Sequence record: MZ375255.1
DNA: 37,752 nt
Direction: 5' to 3' (one strand)
DNA from: Escherichia phage T7
The notes beneath the pieces were generated by a model. The model was not told the origin of the DNA, searched no databases, and saw only the letters and a program-made list of their open reading frames with translations. Shown here piece after piece: positions 1-37,752 of this stretch (position 1 is the first letter of the stretch; each line of letters starts with the position of its first letter). The translations under genes and the position numbers were made by a program.

Positions 1-140
1 TCTCACAGTGTACGGACCTAAAGTTCCCCATAGGGGTACCTAAAGCCCAGCCAATCACCTAAAGTCAACCTTCGGTTGACCTTGAGGGTTCCCTAAGGGT
101 TTGTCTTTGGGTGTTACCTTGAGTGTCTCTCTGTGTCCCT
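1..140 (+). repeat. Left direct terminal repeat (TR), 140 bp, identical to 37613..37752
   Basis: Exact 140-nt identity between window start and end; begins TCTCACAGTGTACGG as in T7 TR. Confidence 0.95.
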
Positions 141-153
141 CTCTGTTACAGTC

Positions 154-320
154 TCCTAAAGTATCCTCCTAAAGTCACCTCCTAACGTCCATCCTAAAGC
201 CAACACCTAAAGCCTTCACCTAAAGACCCATCAAGTCAACGCCTATCTTAAAGTTTAAACATAAAGACCAGACCTAAAGACCAGACCTAAAGACACTACA
301 TAAAGACCAGACCTAAAGAC
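154..320 (+). repeat. Left-end array of short imperfect CCTAAAG-type repeats between TR and phiOL
   Basis: Repeated cctaaag / acctaaagacc units visible; matches T7 left-end repeat region. Confidence 0.6.
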
Positions 321-367
321 GCCTTGTTGTTAGCCATAAAGTGATAACCTTTAATCATTGTCTTTAT

Positions 368-390
368 TAATACAACTCACTATAGGGAGA
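368..390 (+). promoter_or_regulatory. T7 RNAP promoter phiOL
   Basis: TAATACAACTCACTATAGGGAGA; 22/23 match to consensus, A at -11. Confidence 0.8.
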
Positions 391-441
391 GACAACTTAA
401 AGAGACTTAAAAGATTAATTTAAAATTTATCAAAAAGAGTA

Positions 442-478
442 TTGACTTAAAGTCTAACCTATAGGATACTTACAGCCA
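442..478 (+). promoter_or_regulatory. E. coli sigma70 early promoter A1
   Basis: TTGACT (442-447) and GATACT (465-470) with 17-bp spacer. Confidence 0.85.
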
Positions 479-568
479 TCGAGAGGGACACGGCGAATAG
501 CCATCCCAATCGACACCGGGGTCAACCGGATAAGTAGACAGCCTGATAAGTCGCACGAAAAACAGGTA

Positions 569-606
569 TTGACAACATGAAGTAACATGCAGTAAGATAC
601 AAATCG
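569..606 (+). promoter_or_regulatory. E. coli sigma70 early promoter A2
   Basis: TTGACA (569-574), TAAGAT -10, canonical spacing. Confidence 0.85.
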
Positions 607-693
607 CTAGGTAACACTAGCAGCGTCAACCGGGCGCACAGTGCCTTCTAGGTGACTTAAGCGCACCACGGCACATAAGGTGAAACAAAACGG

Positions 694-730
694 TTGACAA
701 CATGAAGTAAACACGGTACGATGTACCACA
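694..730 (+). promoter_or_regulatory. E. coli sigma70 early promoter A3
   Basis: TTGACA (694-699), TACGAT -10 (717-722). Confidence 0.85.
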
Positions 731-841
731 TGAAACGACAGTGAGTCACCACACTGAAAGGTGATGCGGTCTAACGAAACCTGACCTAAGACGCTCTTTA
801 ACAATCTGGTAAATAGCTCTTGAGTGCATGACTAGCGGATA

Positions 842-885
842 ACTCAAGGGTATCGCAAGGTGCCCTTTATGATATTCACTAATAA
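842..885 (+). promoter_or_regulatory. RNase III processing site R0.3 (hairpin upstream of gene 0.3)
   Basis: caagggtatcgcaaggtgccctttatga hairpin motif shared with other R sites in window. Confidence 0.5.
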
Positions 886-904
886 CTGCACGAGGTAACA
901 CAAG

Positions 905-1258
905 ATGGCTATGTCTAACATGACTTACAACAACGTTTTCGACCACGCTTACGAAATGCTGAAAGAAAACATCCGTTATGATGACATCCGTGACACTGAT
1001 GACCTGCACGATGCTATTCACATGGCTGCCGATAATGCAGTTCCGCACTACTACGCTGACATCTTTAGCGTAATGGCAAGTGAGGGCATTGACCTTGAGT
1101 TCGAAGACTCTGGTCTGATGCCTGACACCAAGGACGTAATCCGCATCCTGCAAGCGCGTATCTATGAGCAATTAACGATTGACCTCTGGGAAGACGCAGA
1201 AGACTTGCTCAATGAATACTTGGAGGAAGTCGAGGAGTACGAGGAGGATGAAGAGTAA
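905..1258 (+). CDS. 0.3: Ocr, DNA-mimic anti-restriction protein (117 aa)
   Basis: 117-aa highly acidic protein ending [11 protein letters not shown]; first gene after A1-A3. Confidence 0.97.
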
Positions 1259-1389
1259 TGTCTACTACCAACGTGCAATACGGTCTGACCGCTCAAACTG
1301 TACTTTTCTATAGCGACATGGGGCGGCGTGGCATAGACGAAAGGAAAAGGTTAAAGCCAAGAAACTCGCCGCACTTGAACAGGCACTAG
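1258..1389 (+). pseudogene. 0.4: Chimeric remnant of gene 0.4: first ~21 codons fused out of frame to 3' end of gene 0.6 by deletion
   Basis: ATG overlaps ocr stop (TAATG); [21 protein letters not shown] then unrelated 22 residues to stop at 1387-1389. Confidence 0.7.
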
Positions 1390-1437
1390 CCAACACACTG
1401 AACGCTATCTCATAACGAACATAAAGGACACAATGCA

Positions 1438-2517
1438 ATGAACATTACCGACATCATGAACGCTATCGACGCAATCAAAGCACTGCCAATCTGTGAACTT
1501 GACAAGCGTCAAGGTATGCTTATCGACTTACTGGTCGAGATGGTCAACAGCGAGACGTGTGATGGCGAGCTAACCGAACTAAATCAGGCACTTGAGCATC
1601 AAGATTGGTGGACTACCTTGAAGTGTCTCACGGCTGACGCAGGGTTCAAGATGCTCGGTAATGGTCACTTCTCGGCTGCTTATAGTCACCCGCTGCTACC
1701 TAACAGAGTGATTAAGGTGGGCTTTAAGAAAGAGGATTCAGGCGCAGCCTATACCGCATTCTGCCGCATGTATCAGGGTCGTCCTGGTATCCCTAACGTC
1801 TACGATGTACAGCGCCACGCTGGATGCTATACGGTGGTACTTGACGCACTTAAGGATTGCGAGCGTTTCAACAATGATGCCCATTATAAATACGCTGAGA
1901 TTGCAAGCGACATCATTGATTGCAATTCGGATGAGCATGATGAGTTAACTGGATGGGATGGTGAGTTTGTTGAAACTTGTAAACTAATCCGCAAGTTCTT
2001 TGAGGGCATCGCCTCATTCGACATGCATAGCGGGAACATCATGTTCTCAAATGGAGACGTACCATACATCACCGACCCGGTATCATTCTCGCAGAAGAAA
2101 GACGGTGGCGCATTCAGCATCGACCCTGAGGAACTCATCAAGGAAGTCGAGGAAGTCGCACGACAGAAAGAAATTGACCGCGCTAAGGCCCGTAAAGAAC
2201 GTCACGAGGGGCGCTTAGAGGCACGCAGATTCAAACGTCGCAACCGCAAGGCACGTAAAGCACACAAAGCTAAGCGCGAAAGAATGCTTGCTGCGTGGCG
2301 ATGGGCTGAACGTCAAGAACGGCGTAACCATGAGGTAGCTGTAGATGTACTAGGAAGAACCAATAACGCTATGCTCTGGGTCAACATGTTCTCTGGGGAC
2401 TTTAAGGCGCTTGAGGAACGAATCGCGCTGCACTGGCGTAATGCTGACCGGATGGCTATCGCTAATGGTCTTACGCTCAACATTGATAAGCAACTTGACG
2501 CAATGTTAATGGGCTGA
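1438..2517 (+). CDS. 0.7: Gp0.7 Ser/Thr protein kinase / host transcription shutoff (359 aa)
   Basis: 359-aa ORF with basic K/R-rich C-terminal half; position and size as T7 0.7. Confidence 0.95.
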
Positions 2518-2523
2518 TAGTCT

Positions 2524-2570
2524 TATCTTACAGGTCATCTGCGGGTGGCCTGAATAGGTACGATTTACTA
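2524..2570 (+). promoter_or_regulatory. RNase III processing site R1
   Basis: Hairpin-forming region immediately upstream of gene 1 RBS. Confidence 0.5.
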
Positions 2571-2587
2571 ACTGGAAGAGGCACTAA

Positions 2588-5239
2588 ATGAACACGATTA
2601 ACATCGCTAAGAACGACTTCTCTGACATCGAACTGGCTGCTATCCCGTTCAACACTCTGGCTGACCATTACGGTGAGCGTTTAGCTCGCGAACAGTTGGC
2701 CCTTGAGCATGAGTCTTACGAGATGGGTGAAGCACGCTTCCGCAAGATGTTTGAGCGTCAACTTAAAGCTGGTGAGGTTGCGGATAACGCTGCCGCCAAG
2801 CCTCTCATCACTACCCTACTCCCTAAGATGATTGCACGCATCAACGACTGGTTTGAGGAAGTGAAAGCTAAGCGCGGCAAGCGCCCGACAGCCTTCCAGT
2901 TCCTGCAAGAAATCAAGCCGGAAGCCGTAGCGTACATCACCATTAAGACCACTCTGGCTTGCCTAACCAGTGCTGACAATACAACCGTTCAGGCTGTAGC
3001 AAGCGCAATCGGTCGGGCCATTGAGGACGAGGCTCGCTTCGGTCGTATCCGTGACCTTGAAGCTAAGCACTTCAAGAAAAACGTTGAGGAACAACTCAAC
3101 AAGCGCGTAGGGCACGTCTACAAGAAAGCATTTATGCGAGTTGTCGAGGCTGACATGCTCTCTAAGGGTCTACTCGGTGGCGAGGCGTGGTCTTCGTGGC
3201 ATAAGGAAGACTCTATTCATGTAGGAGTACGCTGCATCGAGATGCTCATTGAGTCAACCGGAATGGTTAGCTTACACCGCCAAAATGCTGGCGTAGTAGG
3301 TCAAGACTCTGAGACTATCGAACTCGCACCTGAATACGCTGAGGCTATCGCAACCCGTGCAGGTGCGCTGGCTGGCATCTCTCCGATGTTCCAACCTTGC
3401 GTAGTTCCTCCTAAGCCGTGGACTGGCATTACTGGTGGTGGCTATTGGGCTAACGGTCGTCGTCCTCTGGCGCTGGTGCGTACTCACAGTAAGAAAGCAC
3501 TGATGCGCTACGAAGACGTTTACATGCCTGAGGTGTACAAAGCGATTAACATTGCGCAAAACACCGCATGGAAAATCAACAAGAAAGTCCTAGCGGTCGC
3601 CAACGTAATCACCAAGTGGAAGCATTGTCCGGTCGAGGACATCCCTGCGATTGAGCGTGAAGAACTCCCGATGAAACCGGAAGACATCGACATGAATCCT
3701 GAGGCTCTCACCGCGTGGAAACGTGCTGCCGCTGCTGTGTACCGCAAGGACAAGGCTCGCAAGTCTCGCCGTATCAGCCTTGAGTTCATGCTTGAGCAAG
3801 CCAATAAGTTTGCTAACCATAAGGCCATCTGGTTCCCTTACAACATGGACTGGCGCGGTCGTGTTTACGCTGTGTCAATGTTCAACCCGCAAGGTAACGA
3901 TATGACCAAAGGACTGCTTACGCTGGCGAAAGGTAAACCAATCGGTAAGGAAGGTTACTACTGGCTGAAAATCCACGGTGCAAACTGTGCGGGTGTCGAT
4001 AAGGTTCCGTTCCCTGAGCGCATCAAGTTCATTGAGGAAAACCACGAGAACATCATGGCTTGCGCTAAGTCTCCACTGGAGAACACTTGGTGGGCTGAGC
4101 AAGATTCTCCGTTCTGCTTCCTTGCGTTCTGCTTTGAGTACGCTGGGGTACAGCACCACGGCCTGAGCTATAACTGCTCCCTTCCGCTGGCGTTTGACGG
4201 GTCTTGCTCTGGCATCCAGCACTTCTCCGCGATGCTCCGAGATGAGGTAGGTGGTCGCGCGGTTAACTTGCTTCCTAGTGAAACCGTTCAGGACATCTAC
4301 GGGATTGTTGCTAAGAAAGTCAACGAGATTCTACAAGCAGACGCAATCAATGGGACCGATAACGAAGTAGTTACCGTGACCGATGAGAACACTGGTGAAA
4401 TCTCTGAGAAAGTCAAGCTGGGCACTAAGGCACTGGCTGGTCAATGGCTGGCTTACGGTGTTACTCGCAGTGTGACTAAGCGTTCAGTCATGACGCTGGC
4501 TTACGGGTCCAAAGAGTTCGGCTTCCGTCAACAAGTGCTGGAAGATACCATTCAGCCAGCTATTGATTCCGGCAAGGGTCTGATGTTCACTCAGCCGAAT
4601 CAGGCTGCTGGATACATGGCTAAGCTGATTTGGGAATCTGTGAGCGTGACGGTGGTAGCTGCGGTTGAAGCAATGAACTGGCTTAAGTCTGCTGCTAAGC
4701 TGCTGGCTGCTGAGGTCAAAGATAAGAAGACTGGAGAGATTCTTCGCAAGCGTTGCGCTGTGCATTGGGTAACTCCTGATGGTTTCCCTGTGTGGCAGGA
4801 ATACAAGAAGCCTATTCAGACGCGCTTGAACCTGATGTTCCTCGGTCAGTTCCGCTTACAGCCTACCATTAACACCAACAAAGATAGCGAGATTGATGCA
4901 CACAAACAGGAGTCTGGTATCGCTCCTAACTTTGTACACAGCCAAGACGGTAGCCACCTTCGTAAGACTGTAGTGTGGGCACACGAGAAGTACGGAATCG
5001 AATCTTTTGCACTGATTCACGACTCCTTCGGTACCATTCCGGCTGACGCTGCGAACCTGTTCAAAGCAGTGCGCGAAACTATGGTTGACACATATGAGTC
5101 TTGTGATGTACTGGCTGATTTCTACGACCAGTTCGCTGACCAGTTGCACGAGTCTCAATTGGACAAAATGCCAGCACTTCCGGCTAAAGGTAACTTGAAC
5201 CTCCGTGACATCTTAGAGTCGGACTTCGCGTTCGCGTAA
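2588..5239 (+). CDS. 1: T7 RNA polymerase (883 aa)
   Basis: 883-aa ORF MNTINIAKNDFSDIELAAIPFNTLADHYGERLAREQ..., ends FAFA. Confidence 0.99.
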   Translation: MNTINIAKNDFSDIELAAIPFNTLADHYGERLAREQLALEHESYEMGEARFRKMFERQLKAGEVADNAAAKPLITTLLPKMIARINDWFEEVKAKRGKRPTAFQFLQEIKPEAVAYITIKTTLACLTSADNTTVQAVASAIGRAIEDEARFGRIRDLEAKHFKKNVEEQLNKRVGHVYKKAFMRVVEADMLSKGLLGGEAWSSWHKEDSIHVGVRCIEMLIESTGMVSLHRQNAGVVGQDSETIELAPEYAEAIATRAGALAGISPMFQPCVVPPKPWTGITGGGYWANGRRPLALVRTHSKKALMRYEDVYMPEVYKAINIAQNTAWKINKKVLAVANVITKWKHCPVEDIPAIEREELPMKPEDIDMNPEALTAWKRAAAAVYRKDKARKSRRISLEFMLEQANKFANHKAIWFPYNMDWRGRVYAVSMFNPQGNDMTKGLLTLAKGKPIGKEGYYWLKIHGANCAGVDKVPFPERIKFIEENHENIMACAKSPLENTWWAEQDSPFCFLAFCFEYAGVQHHGLSYNCSLPLAFDGSCSGIQHFSAMLRDEVGGRAVNLLPSETVQDIYGIVAKKVNEILQADAINGTDNEVVTVTDENTGEISEKVKLGTKALAGQWLAYGVTRSVTKRSVMTLAYGSKEFGFRQQVLEDTIQPAIDSGKGLMFTQPNQAAGYMAKLIWESVSVTVVAAVEAMNWLKSAAKLLAAEVKDKKTGEILRKRCAVHWVTPDGFPVWQEYKKPIQTRLNLMFLGQFRLQPTINTNKDSEIDAHKQESGIAPNFVHSQDGSHLRKTVVWAHEKYGIESFALIHDSFGTIPADAANLFKAVRETMVDTYESCDVLADFYDQFADQLHESQLDKMPALPAKGNLNLRDILESDFAFA

Positions 5240-5247
5240 CGCCAAAT

Positions 5248-5270
5248 CAATACGACTCACTATAGAGGGA
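5248..5270 (+). promoter_or_regulatory. T7 promoter phi1.1A
   Basis: CAATACGACTCACTATAGAGGGA. Confidence 0.85.
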
Positions 5271-5274
5271 CAAA

Positions 5275-5315
5275 CTCAAGGTCATTCGCAAGAGTGGCCT
5301 TTATGATTGACCTTC
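5275..5315 (+). promoter_or_regulatory. RNase III site R1.1
   Basis: caaggtcattcgcaagagtggcctttatga hairpin motif. Confidence 0.5.
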
Positions 5316-5322
5316 TTCCGGT

Positions 5323-5345
5323 TAATACGACTCACTATAGGAGAA
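5323..5345 (+). promoter_or_regulatory. T7 promoter phi1.1B
   Basis: TAATACGACTCACTATAGGAGAA. Confidence 0.9.
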
Positions 5346-5423
5346 CCTTAAGGTTTAACTTTAAGACCCTTAAGTGTTAATTAGAGATTTAAATTAAAGA
5401 ATTACTAAGAGAGGACTTTAAGT

Positions 5424-5552
5424 ATGCGTAACTTCGAAAAGATGACCAAACGTTCTAACCGTAATGCTCGTGACTTCGAGGCAACCAAAGGTCGCAAGTT
5501 GAATAAGACTAAGCGTGACCGCTCTCACAAGCGTAGCTGGGAGGGTCAGTAA
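5424..5552 (+). CDS. 1.1: Gp1.1, small basic protein (42 aa)
   Basis: MRNFEKMTKRSNRNARDFEATKGRKLNKTKRDRSHKRSWEGQ; RBS gagg upstream. Confidence 0.85.
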   Translation: MRNFEKMTKRSNRNARDFEATKGRKLNKTKRDRSHKRSWEGQ

Positions 5553-5553
5553 G

Positions 5554-5811
5554 ATGGGACGTTTATATAGTGGTAATCTGGCAGCATTCAAGGCAGCAAC
5601 AAACAAGCTGTTCCAGTTAGACTTAGCGGTCATTTATGATGACTGGTATGATGCCTATACAAGAAAAGATTGCATACGGTTACGTATTGAGGACAGGAGT
5701 GGAAACCTGATTGATACTAGCACCTTCTACCACCACGACGAGGACGTTCTGTTCAATATGTGTACTGATTGGTTGAACCATATGTATGACCAGTTGAAGG
5801 ACTGGAAGTAA
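5554..5811 (+). CDS. 1.2: Gp1.2, inhibitor of host dGTP triphosphohydrolase (85 aa)
   Basis: MGRLYSGNLAAFK...; stop TAA is first 3 nt of phi1.3. Confidence 0.9.
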   Translation: MGRLYSGNLAAFKAATNKLFQLDLAVIYDDWYDAYTRKDCIRLRIEDRSGNLIDTSTFYHHDEDVLFNMCTDWLNHMYDQLKDWK

Positions 5812-5831
5812 TACGACTCAGTATAGGGACA
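5809..5831 (+). promoter_or_regulatory. T7 promoter phi1.3
   Basis: TAATACGACTCAGTATAGGGACA. Confidence 0.9.
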
Positions 5832-5835
5832 ATGC

Positions 5836-5876
5836 TTAAGGTCGCTCTCTAGGAGTGGCCTTAGTCATTTAACCAA
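5836..5876 (+). promoter_or_regulatory. RNase III site R1.3
   Basis: taaggtcgctctctaggagtggcctt hairpin motif. Confidence 0.5.
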
Positions 5877-5891
5877 TAGGAGATAAACATT

Positions 5892-6971
5892 ATGATGAAC
5901 ATTAAGACTAACCCGTTTAAAGCCGTGTCTTTCGTAGAGTCTGCCATTAAGAAGGCTCTGGATAACGCTGGGTATCTTATCGCTGAAATCAAGTACGATG
6001 GTGTACGCGGGAACATCTGCGTAGACAATACTGCTAACAGTTACTGGCTCTCTCGTGTATCTAAAACGATTCCGGCACTGGAGCACTTAAACGGGTTTGA
6101 TGTTCGCTGGAAGCGTCTACTGAACGATGACCGTTGCTTCTACAAAGATGGCTTTATGCTTGATGGGGAACTCATGGTCAAGGGCGTAGACTTTAACACA
6201 GGGTCCGGCCTACTGCGTACCAAATGGACTGACACGAAGAACCAAGAGTTCCATGAAGAGTTATTCGTTGAACCAATCCGTAAGAAAGATAAAGTTCCCT
6301 TTAAGCTGCACACTGGACACCTTCACATAAAACTGTACGCTATCCTCCCGCTGCACATCGTGGAGTCTGGAGAAGACTGTGATGTCATGACGTTGCTCAT
6401 GCAGGAACACGTTAAGAACATGCTGCCTCTGCTACAGGAATACTTCCCTGAAATCGAATGGCAAGCGGCTGAATCTTACGAGGTCTACGATATGGTAGAA
6501 CTACAGCAACTGTACGAGCAGAAGCGAGCAGAAGGCCATGAGGGTCTCATTGTGAAAGACCCGATGTGTATCTATAAGCGCGGTAAGAAATCTGGCTGGT
6601 GGAAAATGAAACCTGAGAACGAAGCTGACGGTATCATTCAGGGTCTGGTATGGGGTACAAAAGGTCTGGCTAATGAAGGTAAAGTGATTGGTTTTGAGGT
6701 GCTTCTTGAGAGTGGTCGTTTAGTTAACGCCACGAATATCTCTCGCGCCTTAATGGATGAGTTCACTGAGACAGTAAAAGAGGCCACCCTAAGTCAATGG
6801 GGATTCTTTAGCCCATACGGTATTGGCGACAACGATGCTTGTACTATTAACCCTTACGATGGCTGGGCGTGTCAAATTAGCTACATGGAGGAAACACCTG
6901 ATGGCTCTTTGCGGCACCCATCGTTCGTAATGTTCCGTGGCACCGAGGACAACCCTCAAGAGAAAATGTAA
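5892..6971 (+). CDS. 1.3: ATP-dependent DNA ligase (359 aa)
   Basis: Adenylation motif KYDGVRG near N-terminus; 359 aa. Confidence 0.97.
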   Translation: MMNIKTNPFKAVSFVESAIKKALDNAGYLIAEIKYDGVRGNICVDNTANSYWLSRVSKTIPALEHLNGFDVRWKRLLNDDRCFYKDGFMLDGELMVKGVDFNTGSGLLRTKWTDTKNQEFHEELFVEPIRKKDKVPFKLHTGHLHIKLYAILPLHIVESGEDCDVMTLLMQEHVKNMLPLLQEYFPEIEWQAAESYEVYDMVELQQLYEQKRAEGHEGLIVKDPMCIYKRGKKSGWWKMKPENEADGIIQGLVWGTKGLANEGKVIGFEVLLESGRLVNATNISRALMDEFTETVKEATLSQWGFFSPYGIGDNDACTINPYDGWACQISYMEETPDGSLRHPSFVMFRGTEDNPQEKM

Positions 6972-6976
6972 TCACA

Positions 6977-7010
6977 CTGGCTCACCTTCGGGTGGGCCTT
7001 TCTGCGTTTA
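6977..7010 (+). terminator. Early terminator TE (rho-independent, for E. coli RNAP)
   Basis: GC-rich hairpin ggctcacc-ttcg-ggtgggcc followed by T-rich tract. Confidence 0.85.
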
Positions 7011-7021
7011 TAAGGAGACAC

Positions 7022-7044
7022 TTTTACGACTCACTAAAGGAGGT
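7022..7044 (+). promoter_or_regulatory. T7 promoter phi1.5, with non-native T at -16 and -15
   Basis: TTTTACGACTCACTAAAGGAGGT; -14..+6 match phi1.5, upstream 3 nt replaced at deletion junction. Confidence 0.75.
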
Positions 7045-7427: not shown

Positions 7428-8009
7428 TGGGACTGTTAGATGGTGAAGCCTGGGAAAAAGAAAACCCGCCAGTACAAGCAACTGGGTGTATAGCTTGCTT
7501 AGAGAAAGATGACCGTTATCCACACACCTGTAACAAAGGAGCTAACGATATGACCGAACGTGAACAAGAGATGATCATTAAGTTGATAGACAATAATGAA
7601 GGTCGCCCAGATGATTTGAATGGCTGCGGTATTCTCTGCTCCAATGTCCCTTGCCACCTCTGCCCCGCAAATAACGATCAAAAGATAACCTTAGGTGAAA
7701 TCCGAGCGATGGACCCACGTAAACCACATCTGAATAAACCTGAGGTAACTCCTACAGATGACCAGCCTTCCGCTGAGACAATCGAAGGTGTCACTAAGCC
7801 TTCCCACTACATGCTGTTTGACGACATTGAGGCTATCGAAGTGATTGCTCGTTCAATGACCGTTGAGCAGTTCAAGGGATACTGCTTCGGTAACATCTTA
7901 AAGTACAGACTACGTGCTGGTAAGAAGTCAGAGTTAGCGTACTTAGAGAAAGACCTAGCGAAAGCAGACTTCTATAAAGAACTCTTTGAGAAACATAAGG
8001 ATAAATGTT

Positions 8010-9117: not shown

Positions 9118-9537
9118 GTGGAACTGCGGGAGAAAATCCTTGAGCGAATCAAGGTGACTTCCTCTGGGTGTTGGGAGTGGCAGGGCGCTACGAACAATAA
9201 AGGGTACGGGCAGGTGTGGTGCAGCAATACCGGAAAGGTTGTCTACTGTCATCGCGTAATGTCTAATGCTCCGAAAGGTTCTACCGTCCTGCACTCCTGT
9301 GATAATCCATTATGTTGTAACCCTGAACACCGTTCCATAGGAACTCCAAAAGAGAACTCCACTGACATGGTAAATAAGGGTCGCTCACACAAGGGGTATA
9401 AACTTTCAGACGAAGACGTAATGGCAATCATGGAGTCCAGCGAGTCCAATGTATCCTTAGCTCGCACCTATGGTGTCTCCCAACAGACTATTTGTGATAT
9501 ACGCAAAGGGAGGCGACATGGCAGGTTACGGCGCTAA
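9118..9537 (+). CDS. 2.8: Gp2.8, HNH-motif protein, paralog of gp7.7 (139 aa, GTG start)
   Basis: GTG start directly after 2.5 stop; HSCDNPLCCNPEH motif; clear similarity to 17872..18264. Confidence 0.8.
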   Translation: MELREKILERIKVTSSGCWEWQGATNNKGYGQVWCSNTGKVVYCHRVMSNAPKGSTVLHSCDNPLCCNPEHRSIGTPKENSTDMVNKGRSHKGYKLSDEDVMAIMESSESNVSLARTYGVSQQTICDIRKGRRHGRLRR

Positions 9538-9985
9538 AGGAATCCGAAAGGTTGGAGCGTTTCGCTCTGGCCTAGAGGACAAGGTTTCAAAGCAGTTGGA
9601 ATCAAAAGGTATTAAATTCGAGTATGAAGAGTGGAAAGTGCCTTATGTAATTCCGGCGAGCAATCACACTTACACTCCAGACTTCTTACTTCCAAACGGT
9701 ATATTCGTTGAGACAAAGGGTCTGTGGGAAAGCGATGATAGAAAGAAGCACTTATTAATTAGGGAGCAGCACCCCGAGCTAGACATCCGTATTGTCTTCT
9801 CAAGCTCACGTACTAAGTTATACAAAGGTTCTCCAACGTCTTATGGAGAGTTCTGCGAAAAGCATGGTATTAAGTTCGCTGATAAACTGATACCTGCTGA
9901 GTGGATAAAGGAACCCAAGAAGGAGGTCCCCTTTGATAGATTAAAAGGAAAGGAGGAAAGAAATAATGGCTCGTGTACAGTTTAA
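9518..9985 (+). CDS. 3: Endonuclease I (Holliday junction resolvase), C-terminus altered by 1-nt frameshift (155 aa vs 149 aa native)
   Basis: MAGYGAKGIRKV...; ends ...DRLKGKEERNNGSCTV instead of ...DRLKRKGGKK; A4 run at 9943-9946. Confidence 0.85.
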   Translation: MAGYGAKGIRKVGAFRSGLEDKVSKQLESKGIKFEYEEWKVPYVIPASNHTYTPDFLLPNGIFVETKGLWESDDRKKHLLIREQHPELDIRIVFSSSRTKLYKGSPTSYGEFCEKHGIKFADKLIPAEWIKEPKKEVPFDRLKGKEERNNGSCTV

Positions 9986-10421: not shown

Positions 10422-12291
<1,870 letters not shown>

Positions 12292-12314: not shown

Positions 12315-12319
12315 ACACC

Positions 12320-12334
12320 AAATTCTTTGAGTAA
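12320..12334 (+). pseudogene. 4.3: Gene 4.3 remnant (last ~15 nt only; start codon and body deleted)
   Basis: phi4.3 followed after 5 nt by aaattctttgagtaa and then gene 4.5 RBS; no ORF present. Confidence 0.55.
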
Positions 12335-12714: not shown

Positions 12715-14829
12715 ATGATCGTTTCTGACATCGAAGCTAACGCCCTCTTAGAGAGCGTCACTAAGTTCCACTGCGGGGTTATCTACGACTACTCCACCGC
12801 TGAGTACGTAAGCTACCGTCCGAGTGACTTCGGTGCGTATCTGGATGCGCTGGAAGCCGAGGTTGCACGAGGCGGTCTTATTGTGTTCCACAACGGTCAC
12901 AAGTATGACGTTCCTGCATTGACCAAACTGGCAAAGTTGCAATTGAACCGAGAGTTCCACCTTCCTCGTGAGAACTGTATTGACACCCTTGTGTTGTCAC
13001 GTTTGATTCATTCCAACCTCAAGGACACCGATATGGGTCTTCTGCGTTCCGGCAAGTTGCCCGGAAAACGCTTTGGGTCTCACGCTTTGGAGGCGTGGGG
13101 TTATCGCTTAGGCGAGATGAAGGGTGAATACAAAGACGACTTTAAGCGTATGCTTGAAGAGCAGGGTGAAGAATACGTTGACGGAATGGAGTGGTGGAAC
13201 TTCAACGAAGAGATGATGGACTATAACGTTCAGGACGTTGTGGTAACTAAAGCTCTCCTTGAGAAGCTACTCTCTGACAAACATTACTTCCCTCCTGAGA
13301 TTGACTTTACGGACGTAGGATACACTACGTTCTGGTCAGAATCCCTTGAGGCCGTTGACATTGAACATCGTGCTGCATGGCTGCTCGCTAAACAAGAGCG
13401 CAACGGGTTCCCGTTTGACACAAAAGCAATCGAAGAGTTGTACGTAGAGTTAGCTGCTCGCCGCTCTGAGTTGCTCCGTAAATTGACCGAAACGTTCGGC
13501 TCGTGGTATCAGCCTAAAGGTGGCACTGAGATGTTCTGCCATCCGCGAACAGGTAAGCCACTACCTAAATACCCTCGCATTAAGACACCTAAAGTTGGTG
13601 GTATCTTTAAGAAGCCTAAGAACAAGGCACAGCGAGAAGGCCGTGAGCCTTGCGAACTTGATACCCGCGAGTACGTTGCTGGTGCTCCTTACACCCCAGT
13701 TGAACATGTTGTGTTTAACCCTTCGTCTCGTGACCACATTCAGAAGAAACTCCAAGAGGCTGGGTGGGTCCCGACCAAGTACACCGATAAGGGTGCTCCT
13801 GTGGTGGACGATGAGGTACTCGAAGGAGTACGTGTAGATGACCCTGAGAAGCAAGCCGCTATCGACCTCATTAAAGAGTACTTGATGATTCAGAAGCGAA
13901 TCGGACAGTCTGCTGAGGGAGACACAGCATGGCTTCGTTATGTTGCTGAGGATGGTAAGATTCATGGTTCTGTTAACCCTAATGGAGCAGTTACGGGTCG
14001 TGCGACCCATGCGTTCCCAAACCTTGCGCAAATTCCGGGTGTACGTTCTCCTTATGGAGAGCAGTGTCGCGCTGCTTTTGGCGCTGAGCACCATTTGGAT
14101 GGGATAACTGGTAAGCCTTGGGTTCAGGCTGGCATCGACGCATCCGGTCTTGAGCTACGCTGCTTGGCTCACTTCATGGCTCGCTTTGATAACGGCGAGT
14201 ACGCTCACGAGATTCTTAACGGCGACATCCACACTAAGAACCAGATAGCTGCTGAACTACCTACCCGAGATAACGCTAAGACGTTCATCTATGGGTTCCT
14301 CTATGGTGCTGGTGATGAGAAGATTGGACAGATTGTTGGTGCTGGTAAAGAGCGCGGTAAGGAACTCAAGAAGAAATTCCTTGAGAACACCCCCGCGATT
14401 GCAGCACTCCGCGAGTCTATCCAACAGACACTTGTCGAGTCCTCTCAATGGGTAGCTGGTGAGCAACAAGTCAAGTGGAAACGCCGCTGGATTAAAGGTC
14501 TGGATGGTCGTAAGGTACACGTTCGTAGTCCTCACGCTGCCTTGAATACCCTACTGCAATCTGCTGGTGCTCTCATCTGCAAACTGTGGATTATCAAGAC
14601 CGAAGAGATGCTCGTAGAGAAAGGCTTGAAGCATGGCTGGGATGGGGACTTTGCGTACATGGCATGGGTACATGATGAAATCCAAGTAGGCTGCCGTACC
14701 GAAGAGATTGCTCAGGTGGTCATTGAGACCGCACAAGAAGCGATGCGCTGGGTTGGAGACCACTGGAACTTCCGGTGTCTTCTGGATACCGAAGGTAAGA
14801 TGGGTCCTAATTGGGCGATTTGCCACTGA
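12715..14829 (+). CDS. 5: DNA polymerase gp5 (704 aa)
   Basis: [12 protein letters not shown] (exo motif DxE), family A polymerase motifs; RBS aggagaaatcaat. Confidence 0.98.
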
Positions 14830-16430: not shown

Positions 16431-16530
16431 CGTATATTGGTCTGGGTCTTTGTGTTCTCGGAGTGTGCCTCATTTCGTGGGGCCTTTGGGACTTAGCCAG
16501 AATAATCAAGTCGTTACACGACACTAAGTG
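16418..16530 (+). pseudogene. 6.3: Gene 6.3 region with apparent frame discontinuity (GTG frame stops at 16502-16504; C-terminal coding continues in -1 frame to TGA 16528-16530)
   Basis: GTG-initiated hydrophobic peptide VETVAYIGLGLCVLGVCLISWGLWDLAR then stop; ...IIKSLHDTK* in adjacent frame. Confidence 0.45.
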
Positions 16531-16550
16531 ATAAACTCAAGGTCCCTAAA

Positions 16551-16573
16551 TTAATACGACTCACTATAGGGAG
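16551..16573 (+). promoter_or_regulatory. T7 class III promoter phi6.5
   Basis: TAATACGACTCACTATAGGGAGA. Confidence 0.95.
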
Positions 16574-16628
16574 ATAGGGGCCTTTACGATTATTACTTTA
16601 AGATTTAACTCTAAGAGGAATCTTTATT

Positions 16629-16883
16629 ATGTTAACACCTATTAACCAATTACTTAAGAACCCTAACGATATTCCAGATGTACCTCGTGCAACCGCTGAG
16701 TATCTACAGGTTCGATTCAACTATGCGTACCTCGAAGCGTCTGGTCATATAGGACTTATGCGTGCTAATGGTTGTAGTGAGGCCCACATCTTGGGTTTCA
16801 TTCAGGGCCTACAGTATGCCTCTAACGTCATTGACGAGATTGAGTTACGCAAGGAACAACTAAGAGATGATGGGGAGGATTGA
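16629..16883 (+). CDS. 6.5: Gp6.5 (84 aa)
   Basis: [27 protein letters not shown]...; RBS agaggaatc. Confidence 0.88.
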
Positions 16884-37412: not shown

Positions 37413-37460
37413 ATGTTCCGCTTATTGTTGAACCTACTGCGGCATAGAGTCAAGTCCTAA
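37413..37460 (+). pseudogene. 19.5: Gene 19.5 truncated to 15 codons by ~189-bp deletion
   Basis: RBS aagggaggag; MFRLLLNLLRHRVKS* where reference gp19.5 is 49 aa. Confidence 0.7.
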
Positions 37461-37612: not shown

Positions 37613-37752
37613 TCTCACAGTGTACGGACCTAAAGTTCCCCATAGGGGTACCTAAAGCCCAGCCAATCACCTAAAGTCAACCTTCGGTTGACCTTGAGGG
37701 TTCCCTAAGGGTTTGTCTTTGGGTGTTACCTTGAGTGTCTCTCTGTGTCCCT
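37613..37752 (+). repeat. Right direct terminal repeat (TR), 140 bp, identical to 1..140
   Basis: Exact identity with window positions 1..140. Confidence 0.95.

Follow-up and report, generated by a model that had tools for sequence, protein, structure and literature searches.

A deletion of bacteriophage T7 genes 0.4–0.6 at an imperfect direct repeat in a genome very probably derived from CRISPR/Cas9 passage

Genes 0.4–0.6 of bacteriophage T7 have been known to be dispensable since the deletion mutants of Studier. Break-stimulated deletion between perfect short direct repeats has reportedly been described for T7 as well, by Kong and Masker in 1994 and by Studier et al. in 1979. As described by Isaev et al. 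2020 (PMC7261183), the H1 allele of Studier is an early-region deletion that removes T7 1256-2735 between 12-bp repeats, generates a '0.3-0.7 fusion' and appears spontaneously when the phage is grown in rich medium. T7 without gene 0.4 is viable, with a titre that is lower by ∼10-fold and with earlier lysis, according to the account of Kiro et al. 2013 given in PMC9372555.

Further deletions come from CRISPR/Cas9 iterative genome-reduction (CiPGr). According to the main text of Yuan et al. 2022 (PMC9825161), T7 went through 300 passages on E. coli MG1655 that carried spCas9 together with a library of plasmids, and each cassette pairs one spacer with two 50-bp homology arms. Whole genes are removed by the 'cassette-gene' design and 100 bp by the 'cassette-100' design, and up to eight spacers per gene are spread along each gene. 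With the cassette-gene library, large (L) and small (S) plaques were sampled each 10 transfers up to transfer 300, and 60 T7 genomes were sequenced. The same text describes 'large fragment' losses at gp0.3-0.6 and gp19.5 as undesigned and 'probably' due to CRISPR escape (PMC9825161), and reports that the optimal T7 mutant was outcompeted by wild type, making up <20% after four transfers.

We analysed the early region of sequence record MZ375255.1, a 37,752-nt stretch of Escherichia phage T7 DNA that we refer to as the window. It begins with the T7 left end and the A1-A3 promoters, followed by ocr, and gene 1 (RNA polymerase) starts at 2588. A first-pass annotation of the letters alone had pointed out that only 179 nt separate the ocr stop from gene 0.7, where reference T7 has about 740, and had proposed a 563-bp loss that joins the gene 0.4 start with the last part of gene 0.6. 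Alignment to T7 bears this out in both size and endpoints: the gap at 1259-1437 is exactly 179 nt, as compared with 742 nt in V01146 (1279-2020). BLAST followed by base-by-base extension shows that window 1..1321 corresponds to T7 1..1341 (numbering is offset by 20 at this flank owing to changes in the terminal repeat) and that the window from 1321 onward corresponds to T7 from 1904 onward, with one G common to both flanks and assignable to either. Absent from the window is T7 1342-1904, or 563 bp relative to V01146. Relative to modern T7 (AY264774; MZ375233), which has one more A at ∼1895/1896, the loss is 564 bp. From 386 to 7024 of the window, the differences from V01146 are confined to three positions in the junction repeat and a substitution at 3138.

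The interval between ocr and gene 0.7 in V01146 holds genes 0.4, 0.5 and 0.6A, a 'possible 0.6B' and the minor E. coli promoter B at 1514. The deleted segment covers gene 0.4 beyond codon 21, all of 0.5, all of 0.6A, most of 0.6B, the R0.5 hairpin and minor promoter B, and the breakpoints lie off gene edges, at codon 22 of gene 0.4 and within the 0.6B ORF, 95 nt before its stop. Alignment, translations and hairpin folding thus agree with the earlier view that gene 0.4 from codon 22, 0.5, 0.6A/B and R0.5 are gone. The 0.4 ATG, which overlaps the ocr stop (1258-1260), is intact as that annotation had stated, and the 21 residues it had read from this start are residues 1-21 of gp0.4 (Table 1). 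The short gap between ocr and 0.7 is therefore a real deletion of T7 genes 0.4–0.6. Because the flanks are essentially identical to T7 and the same junction is found in 31 separately deposited genomes, neither chance nor an assembly artefact accounts for it.

Table 1. Features of the ocr-0.7 region and internal deletions of the window, with T7 positions as in V01146
Feature	Window position	Strand	T7 position	Remarks
ocr (gene 0.3) CDS	905..1258	+	925-1278	intact, 117 aa, stop TAA 1256-1258; no difference from T7
Gene 0.4 5' remnant	1258..1320	+		codons 1-21 of 51; translation equals gp0.4 residues 1-21
Deletion junction	1321..1332	.		sole kept copy of imperfect 12-nt direct repeat, right-hand version GGGCGGCGTGGC
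Fusion ORF	1258..1389	+		43 aa, gp0.4(1-21) then GRRGIDERKRLKPRNSPHLNRH; ends TAG 1387-1389
0.65/0.6B ORF remnant	1323..1415	+		last 30 codons plus stop TAA 1413-1415
Native spacer 5' of gene 0.7	1416..1437	+		includes ribosome-binding site AAAGGACACAATGCAATG; unchanged
Gene 0.7 (protein kinase / host shut-off)	1438..2517	+	2021-3100	intact, 359 aa; no difference from T7
0.4-0.6 deletion			1342-1904	off gene edges; imperfect 12-nt repeat
Gene 1.4 deletion			7608-7763	equals CDS exactly; microhomology 0 nt
Gene 3.8 deletion			11254-11545	within gene; microhomology 0 nt
Gene 4.3 deletion			about 13353-13550	within gene; microhomology 3 nt
Gene 4.7 deletion			13927-14334	equals CDS exactly; microhomology 0 nt
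Gene 5.3 deletion			16483-16820	begins at ATG; microhomology 0 nt
19.5 deletion			about 39420-39617	189 bp; off gene edges; perfect 9-nt repeat ATAGAGTCA

Reading the frames across the junction calls for care with the reference. According to the V01146 annotation, 0.6B runs to 1972 in the frame used by the fusion ORF of the window, and the product would then be an in-frame chimera of gp0.4(1-21) with the C-terminal 22 aa of gp0.6B. We exclude this chimera on the basis of an extra A, the ORF of relatives and the annotation of GU071091. The A at ∼1895 is missing from V01146, V01127 and NC_001604; it is present at ∼1895/1896 in AY264774, a later and independently deposited T7 of 39,938 bp, and in MZ375233, the earliest clone of the mutant series described below. 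By tblastn, the corrected 0.65/0.6B ORF is unbroken in all 28 other T7 records with an intact region among the matches listed, as well as in at least ∼20 relatives among those matches at 86-98% identity, including Shigella phage ESh3, Bas102, NC-A, N30, C5, YpP-R and LPST144. Among the same matches, it falls into two pieces only in V01146, V01127 and NC_001604. GU071091 labels 1781-1999 as '0.6B protein', with the C-terminus ...LNAIS.

Given the extra A, the tail of the fusion ORF corresponds to a non-coding frame of corrected T7, and measured against the real parent type 564 bp are missing. The first-pass reading that the 0.4 start runs into a frame other than that of 0.6B, stopping at 1387-1389, seems wrong on V01146 and holds on the corrected sequence. 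So does its assignment of the frame ending ...LNAIS* (stop 1413-1415) to the C-terminus of 0.6B, which is how 0.6B ends in GU071091. The RefSeq and 1983 T7 sequences (NC_001604 / V01146) are short by one base in 0.6B, and frame calls made against them mislead. After the upstream in-frame stop at 1311-1313, the 0.6B remnant has no ATG, GTG or TTG and is dead for lack of a start codon. The 43-aa fusion peptide, on the other hand, is probably made, since the coupled 0.3-stop/0.4-start is preserved, and it is probably non-functional and expected to be inert.

To place the junction among known phages, we searched 50,697 phage records with an 80-bp probe spanning it. Exact matches are found in 31 records, all of them confined to a mutant series deposited as MZ3752xx and OL9647xx. 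Over a 1,801-bp stretch across the junction, 23 records are 100% identical to the window and a further 8 reach 99.9%. Matching MZ3752xx records are titled 'Mutant Escherichia phage T7 clone T7_nL' or 'T7_nS'. The clone names checked (MZ375233 = T7_10L, 235 = 20L, 237 = 30L, 239 = 40L, 270 = 190S, 273 = 210L) indicate that accession order follows transfer number, with one L and one S clone per time point. This naming and sampling fit the scheme in the main text of PMC9825161, and it is through clone names, numbers and design logic that we connect the deposited genomes with that study. The first 25 kb of the window are 99.9-100% identical to clones 90L-220L, and the closest single-piece matches among those listed are clones of transfers 140-220, none of which matches end to end. 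The earliest clones of the series keep an intact 0.4-0.6 region. Taken together, these comparisons indicate that the genome is a laboratory-derived T7, very probably from the CiPGr passage of Yuan et al. 2022. The exact allele is thus already public in GenBank, and this type of loss is already described.

Counted against V01146, the window contains seven internal deletions, that is, six besides the one at 0.4-0.6 (Table 1). The deletions of 1.4, 4.7, 5.3, 3.8 and 4.3 look designed, with endpoints that would fit template-directed deletion. Only the 0.4-0.6 and 19.5 deletions disregard gene edges, and both of these lie on short direct repeats. The 0.4-0.6 deletion has neither the whole-gene endpoints nor the 100-bp size of a cassette product, being 563/564 bp long, and it is most likely undesigned and mediated by its short repeat. 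The window also shows promoter +1 changes and a polymerase substitution. As the window is an engineered, passaged genome, its oddities are to be read as laboratory selection and not as natural variation.

The repeat at the 0.4-0.6 junction is imperfect. In the parent, the left-hand copy at T7 1341-1352 is GTGCGCTGTGGC and the right-hand copy at T7 1904-1915 is GGGCGGCGTGGC; they agree at 9 of 12 positions, with no more than 5 nt (GTGGC) forming an exact core. The two copies bracket the deleted segment as direct repeats and one of them is left at window 1321-1332. This is not a perfect repeat of ∼9-13 bp, and the unambiguous microhomology at the window junction is 1 nt. The homology is nonetheless not a matter of chance, because an exhaustive count for this region finds flanking identity of at least 9/12 in only 83 of 141,246 registers (6e-4). 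Nor is it a sufficient explanation for the endpoints, given that stronger repeats in the region went unused (for example, one at 1367/1820 matches at 11/12 positions and contains a 10-nt exact core at 1369/1822). These stronger repeats were returned by a repeat search with a 6-nt seed, which did not report the junction repeat with its 5-nt core. Something else, for example the position of the break or the protospacers removed, must have helped to fix the endpoints.

The junction exists in two versions. Type A, the version in the window, retains the right-hand copy and is carried by the 31 records, which run from T7_30L to T7_300S. Type B is found in 10 records (MZ375261, 273, 277, 282, 283, 288 and 289; OL964739-41) that match the probe at 96.3%, with three mismatches. 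We aligned the two parental sites, the window and two type B clones in a five-way comparison, and in these two of the 10 records type B is the same deletion in the same register, with the left-hand copy retained. Mosaic junctions of intermediate identity were not found with the 80-bp probe in the 50,697 phage records.

We think it probable that the window is, as a whole, a CiPGr-derived T7 genome in which an undesigned deletion left the 179-nt stretch as its scar. A Cas9 double-strand break in 0.4, 0.5 or 0.6 would most likely stimulate the deletion, and either the resected ends would anneal at the short repeats or replication would slip between them. One such event would shed most of the Cas9 targets in three dispensable genes and shorten the genome, and could spread as a result. 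Of 66 possible SpCas9 (NGG) protospacers across 0.4-0.6B, 56 are lost with the deletion. The two junction versions each retain a type-specific candidate protospacer, at 1329-1351 in type B only and at 1906-1928 in type A only. At least three different undesigned alleles of 0.4-0.6, independent of one another and each bounded by repeats, appear within 40 transfers of the series, pointing to a strong and directional pressure on this part of the genome. One of the other alleles is a 677-bp deletion (T7_40L, MZ375239 and others) that removes parental 1314-1990 at the repeat CTGACCGCT/CTGAACGCT, identical at 8 of 9 positions. In T7_20L (MZ375235), a 1,480-bp deletion at AGGAAGTCGAGG yields an ocr-0.7 fusion of 231 aa and is the H1 deletion of PMC7261183.

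The main alternative is that slippage occurred spontaneously, without Cas9, and that the product was selected for faster growth in rich medium, as has been proposed for H1. Deletions that owe nothing to Cas9 do occur in this region. AY264775 and AY264776, which we take to be evolved lines from the Bull laboratory and which are older than CRISPR editing, carry deletions that begin inside 0.6A and 0.5. H1 itself is spontaneous, is thought to raise fitness (PMC7261183) and is present in the series at transfer 20, and the earlier lysis of cultures by T7 without 0.4 (PMC9372555) is in keeping with such an advantage. Against a spontaneous origin, the exact junction is restricted to a single passaged series among the records searched, and several undesigned alleles of the targeted genes arose there within a short run of transfers. 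A plain gain in fitness is also not obvious, since the optimal mutant loses to wild type and loss of 0.4 reduces titre. We therefore regard spontaneous slippage as rather unlikely. Escape from a multi-spacer Cas9 library fits better than plain growth advantage because most protospacers are lost at once, the best mutant is outcompeted and the 0.4 deficiency is costly.

A designed deletion, made by homologous recombination with a plasmid cassette, is very improbable. The library experiment presumably targeted 0.4, 0.5 and 0.6, and the five other deletions named above look templated. Cassettes are expected to remove whole genes or 100 bp, however, whereas this deletion takes parts of two genes and two whole ones, starting from codon 22. 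One synthetic template cannot yield both junction variants, which differ at three positions, and the main text of PMC9825161 itself counts losses here as undesigned. That the window represents a natural T7-like phage that always lacked 0.4-0.6, or an assembly artefact, is scarcely credible: early-gene content does vary in natural relatives (coverage of the parental region is 33-74% in several T7-like phages), but the flanks are essentially those of T7, the kept pieces are a truncated 0.4 and a truncated 0.6B, the earliest clones of the series are intact, alignment to reference T7 rejects native spacing, which the first-pass annotation had named as its own refutation, and 41 independently assembled genomes share the deletion.

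Within the preferred explanation, an undesigned deletion in the CiPGr passage, how the two junction versions arose can be considered separately. Types A and B could be the two daughter strands of one single-strand-annealing heteroduplex, formed after a Cas9 break across the 12-nt repeat with its three mismatches, escaping repair and separating when the DNA was next replicated, a suggestion that we put forward tentatively and consider on the unlikely side. Single-strand annealing predicts one repeat version on each strand of such a heteroduplex, and these are exactly the versions seen as types A and B. Type A was first sampled at transfer 30 and type B at transfer 150, and this gap fits equal segregation from one event poorly, unless type B was long rare; a single event would require it to have been rare for >100 transfers. 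A late origin of type B seems unlikely, because retention of the left-hand copy needs a genome that keeps 1342-1352, and among the isolates examined from transfer 20 onward none has an intact 0.4-0.6 region. Independent events at the same repeat and a single event are equally possible. If the heteroduplex reading were true, the paired junctions would be an in vivo footprint of T7 strand annealing on very poor homology and would serve as a practical rule by which CRISPR-escape deletions are predicted when phages are engineered.

We next consider what the deletion would mean for the phage. The gp0.4 protein is a 51-residue FtsZ inhibitor (PMC9372555) predicted to form two antiparallel helices (PMC13423816). 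On this predicted fold, loss of residues 22-51 would take away the second helix, and with residues 1-21 alone remaining the block of FtsZ is very probably lost. The gp0.6 protein disturbs cell shape through MreB (PMC6965359); gp0.5 and the MreB-targeting gp0.6A/B would be absent from the mutant. The first-pass remarks on gp0.4 and FtsZ and on gp0.6 and MreB are consistent with these three reports.

At the RNA level, the parental stretch 1428-1479, which falls within the deletion, forms a long, irregular hairpin on folding (-25.4 kcal/mol, z = -2.85); folding of the 196-nt remnant in the window shows nothing notable (z = 0.19). The hairpin has the form expected of the RNase III site R0.5, which Dunn and Studier reportedly placed at T7 1468 in 1983. 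A scan of the whole window with Rfam at gathering thresholds gave zero matches, and it thus offers no curated family for T7 RNase III sites or other RNA in the window. The R0.3 and R1 regions are the same as in the reference. With the R0.5 cut lost and R0.3 and R1 unchanged, ocr and 0.7 should share one processed early mRNA that extends from R0.3 to R1. The minor host promoter B is lost as well.

The biological weight of the locus is small: this is a real, correctly read and ordinary deletion. What is new lies in the detail of the imperfect repeat and the paired junction variants, together with the reminder of the one-base error of RefSeq T7 in 0.6B, and it is only mildly new. If the deletion is indeed one of CRISPR escape, it would indicate that such deletions in T7 rely on direct repeats that are very short and need not be perfect, which is relevant to the design of Cas9 counter-selection in phages.

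Compared with known systems, the locus is closest to the undesigned 'large fragment' deletions of CiPGr: the junction is identical in 31 clones, and these clones share the background of designed gene deletions seen in the window. The main text of PMC9825161 gives neither the endpoints, the junction repeat nor the two junction variants. The 0.4 knockout of Kiro et al. shares the loss of gp0.4 and concerns a single gene, whereas here 0.5, 0.6A/B and R0.5 are also gone. The 677-bp allele is likewise an undesigned loss of 0.4-0.6 at a short imperfect repeat, with 0.3 and 0.7 intact, and differs in what remains: only ∼9-12 codons of 0.4 and no more than the final 9 nt of 0.6B. Comparison with known early-region deletion mutants, which the first-pass annotation had proposed as a check, separates the allele from H1 and matches it to the mutant T7 clone series. 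H1 resembles the present deletion in losing 0.4, 0.5 and 0.6, in being flanked by a short direct repeat and in being viable. It differs in its length of 1,480 bp, its perfect 12-bp repeats (AGGAAGTCGAGG), its truncated ocr and the loss of two thirds of 0.7. In the window, by contrast, both H1 repeats remain (1224, 2141), ocr and 0.7 are of full length, and the repeat used is a different one with 9/12 identity; the presence of both AGGAAGTCGAGG copies and the lack of a 0.3-0.7 fusion exclude H1 as the identity of this deletion. The systems attributed to Kong and Masker and to Studier are reportedly similar in that one repeat copy is kept and that a double-strand break lying between the two copies could plausibly set off the deletion. 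The repeats in those systems are said to be perfect, whereas here they carry three mismatches in 12 nt and both versions are recovered unmixed.

The window differs from the 1983 T7 reference (V01146) at many positions beyond the deletion of genes 0.4–0.6. Five further deletions, in genes 1.4, 3.8, 4.3, 4.7 and 5.3, look template-designed, that is, like the template-directed cassette deletions of the CRISPR/Cas9 genome reduction described by Yuan et al. 2022 (PMC9825161). At the gene 3.8 junction, T is replaced by A at window position 10513, resulting in a TAA. Missense changes, scored against both V01146 and T7_10L (MZ375233), the earliest clone of the series, cluster in gene 7.3 and gene 16, which encode tail and ejection proteins, and this clustering suggests selection during passage.

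Sequence changes in the window, with T7 coordinates as in V01146
Feature	Window	T7	Detail
Terminal repeats	1-140, 37613-37752	99-116	18 bp missing from each (T7 coordinates)
phiOL promoter	385	405	+1 A to G
RNA polymerase	3138	3721	Q184R, CAA to CGA
Gene 1.4 deletion	7024/7025	7608-7763	exact CDS
Gene 2.8	9332-9333		L72R, dinucleotide change
Gene 3 end	~9940-9965	10682	A5 run one A shorter
Gene 3.8 deletion	10513/10514	11254-11545	
Gene 4.3 deletion	12318-12320	~13353-13550	
Gene 4.7 deletion	12696/12697	13927-14334	exact CDS
Gene 5	13925		K404T
Gene 5.3 deletion	14844/14845	16483-16820	from ATG of 5.3
Gene 7.3	17595, 17631		T13P, R25S
phi10 promoter	20928	22904	+1 G to T
Gene 12	24043		V393A
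Gene 16	31043, 32091, 32196		G809S, K1158R, A1193V
Gene 19.5 deletion	37444-37452		189 bp

Each terminal repeat is 140 bp rather than 160 bp in length. The missing 18 bp lie between GGGTT repeats, a run of five C and a run of five G are each one base shorter, and the left and right copies carry the same changes. Losing one A close to the end of gene 3, which encodes endonuclease I, extends the ORF from 149 to 155 aa, alters the last six residues and carries the ORF across the start of gene 3.5. The frame may truly be shifted, or the missing A may be a sequencing error in the homopolymer.

Two T7 promoters are altered at the initiating base. At phiOL, the change converts TATAAGGAGA to the consensus TATAGGGAGA and is a possible up-mutation. 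At phi10, the strong class III promoter of the major capsid gene, TATAGGGAGA becomes TATATGGAGA, which would be expected to weaken initiation and is odd in a capsid promoter. The phi10 change may be linked to the RNA polymerase Q184R substitution or to the small-plaque phenotype. Both Q184R and the phiOL change are absent from T7_10L.

The comparison also bears on the reference itself. An A missing from the 1983 sequence (V01146 ~1895; also V01127 and NC_001604) is present at position 1896 in both MZ375233 and the later T7 genome AY264774 and, among the matches listed, in all 28 of the other T7 records in which this region is intact; ~20 relatives among those matches likewise have the ORF unbroken. 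The actual 0.6B-region ORF spans 1781-1999 and ends in LANTLNAIS, and the C-terminus given for the RefSeq 'possible gene 0.6B' is therefore wrong.

The loss of gene 19.5 is a second repeat-mediated, undesigned deletion in the window. It removes most of the gene and ~70-80 nt beyond it, is bounded by perfect 9-nt direct repeats (ATAGAGTCA), and agrees with the 'gp19.5' large-fragment class of Yuan et al. Both copies of AGGAAGTCGAGG, the repeat that generates Studier's ocr-0.7 fusion deletion H1, are retained (window 1224 and 2141), and this genome could still undergo that deletion, which is found in the sister clone T7_20L (MZ375235). Another sister clone, T7_40L (MZ375239), carries a different allele at locus 456-464, a 677-bp deletion of genes 0.4–0.6 whose flanking repeats are CTGACCGCT at parent 1305 and CTGAACGCT at parent 1982. 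As in the window's own deletion of these genes, the repeat is short and imperfect and the right-hand copy is kept.
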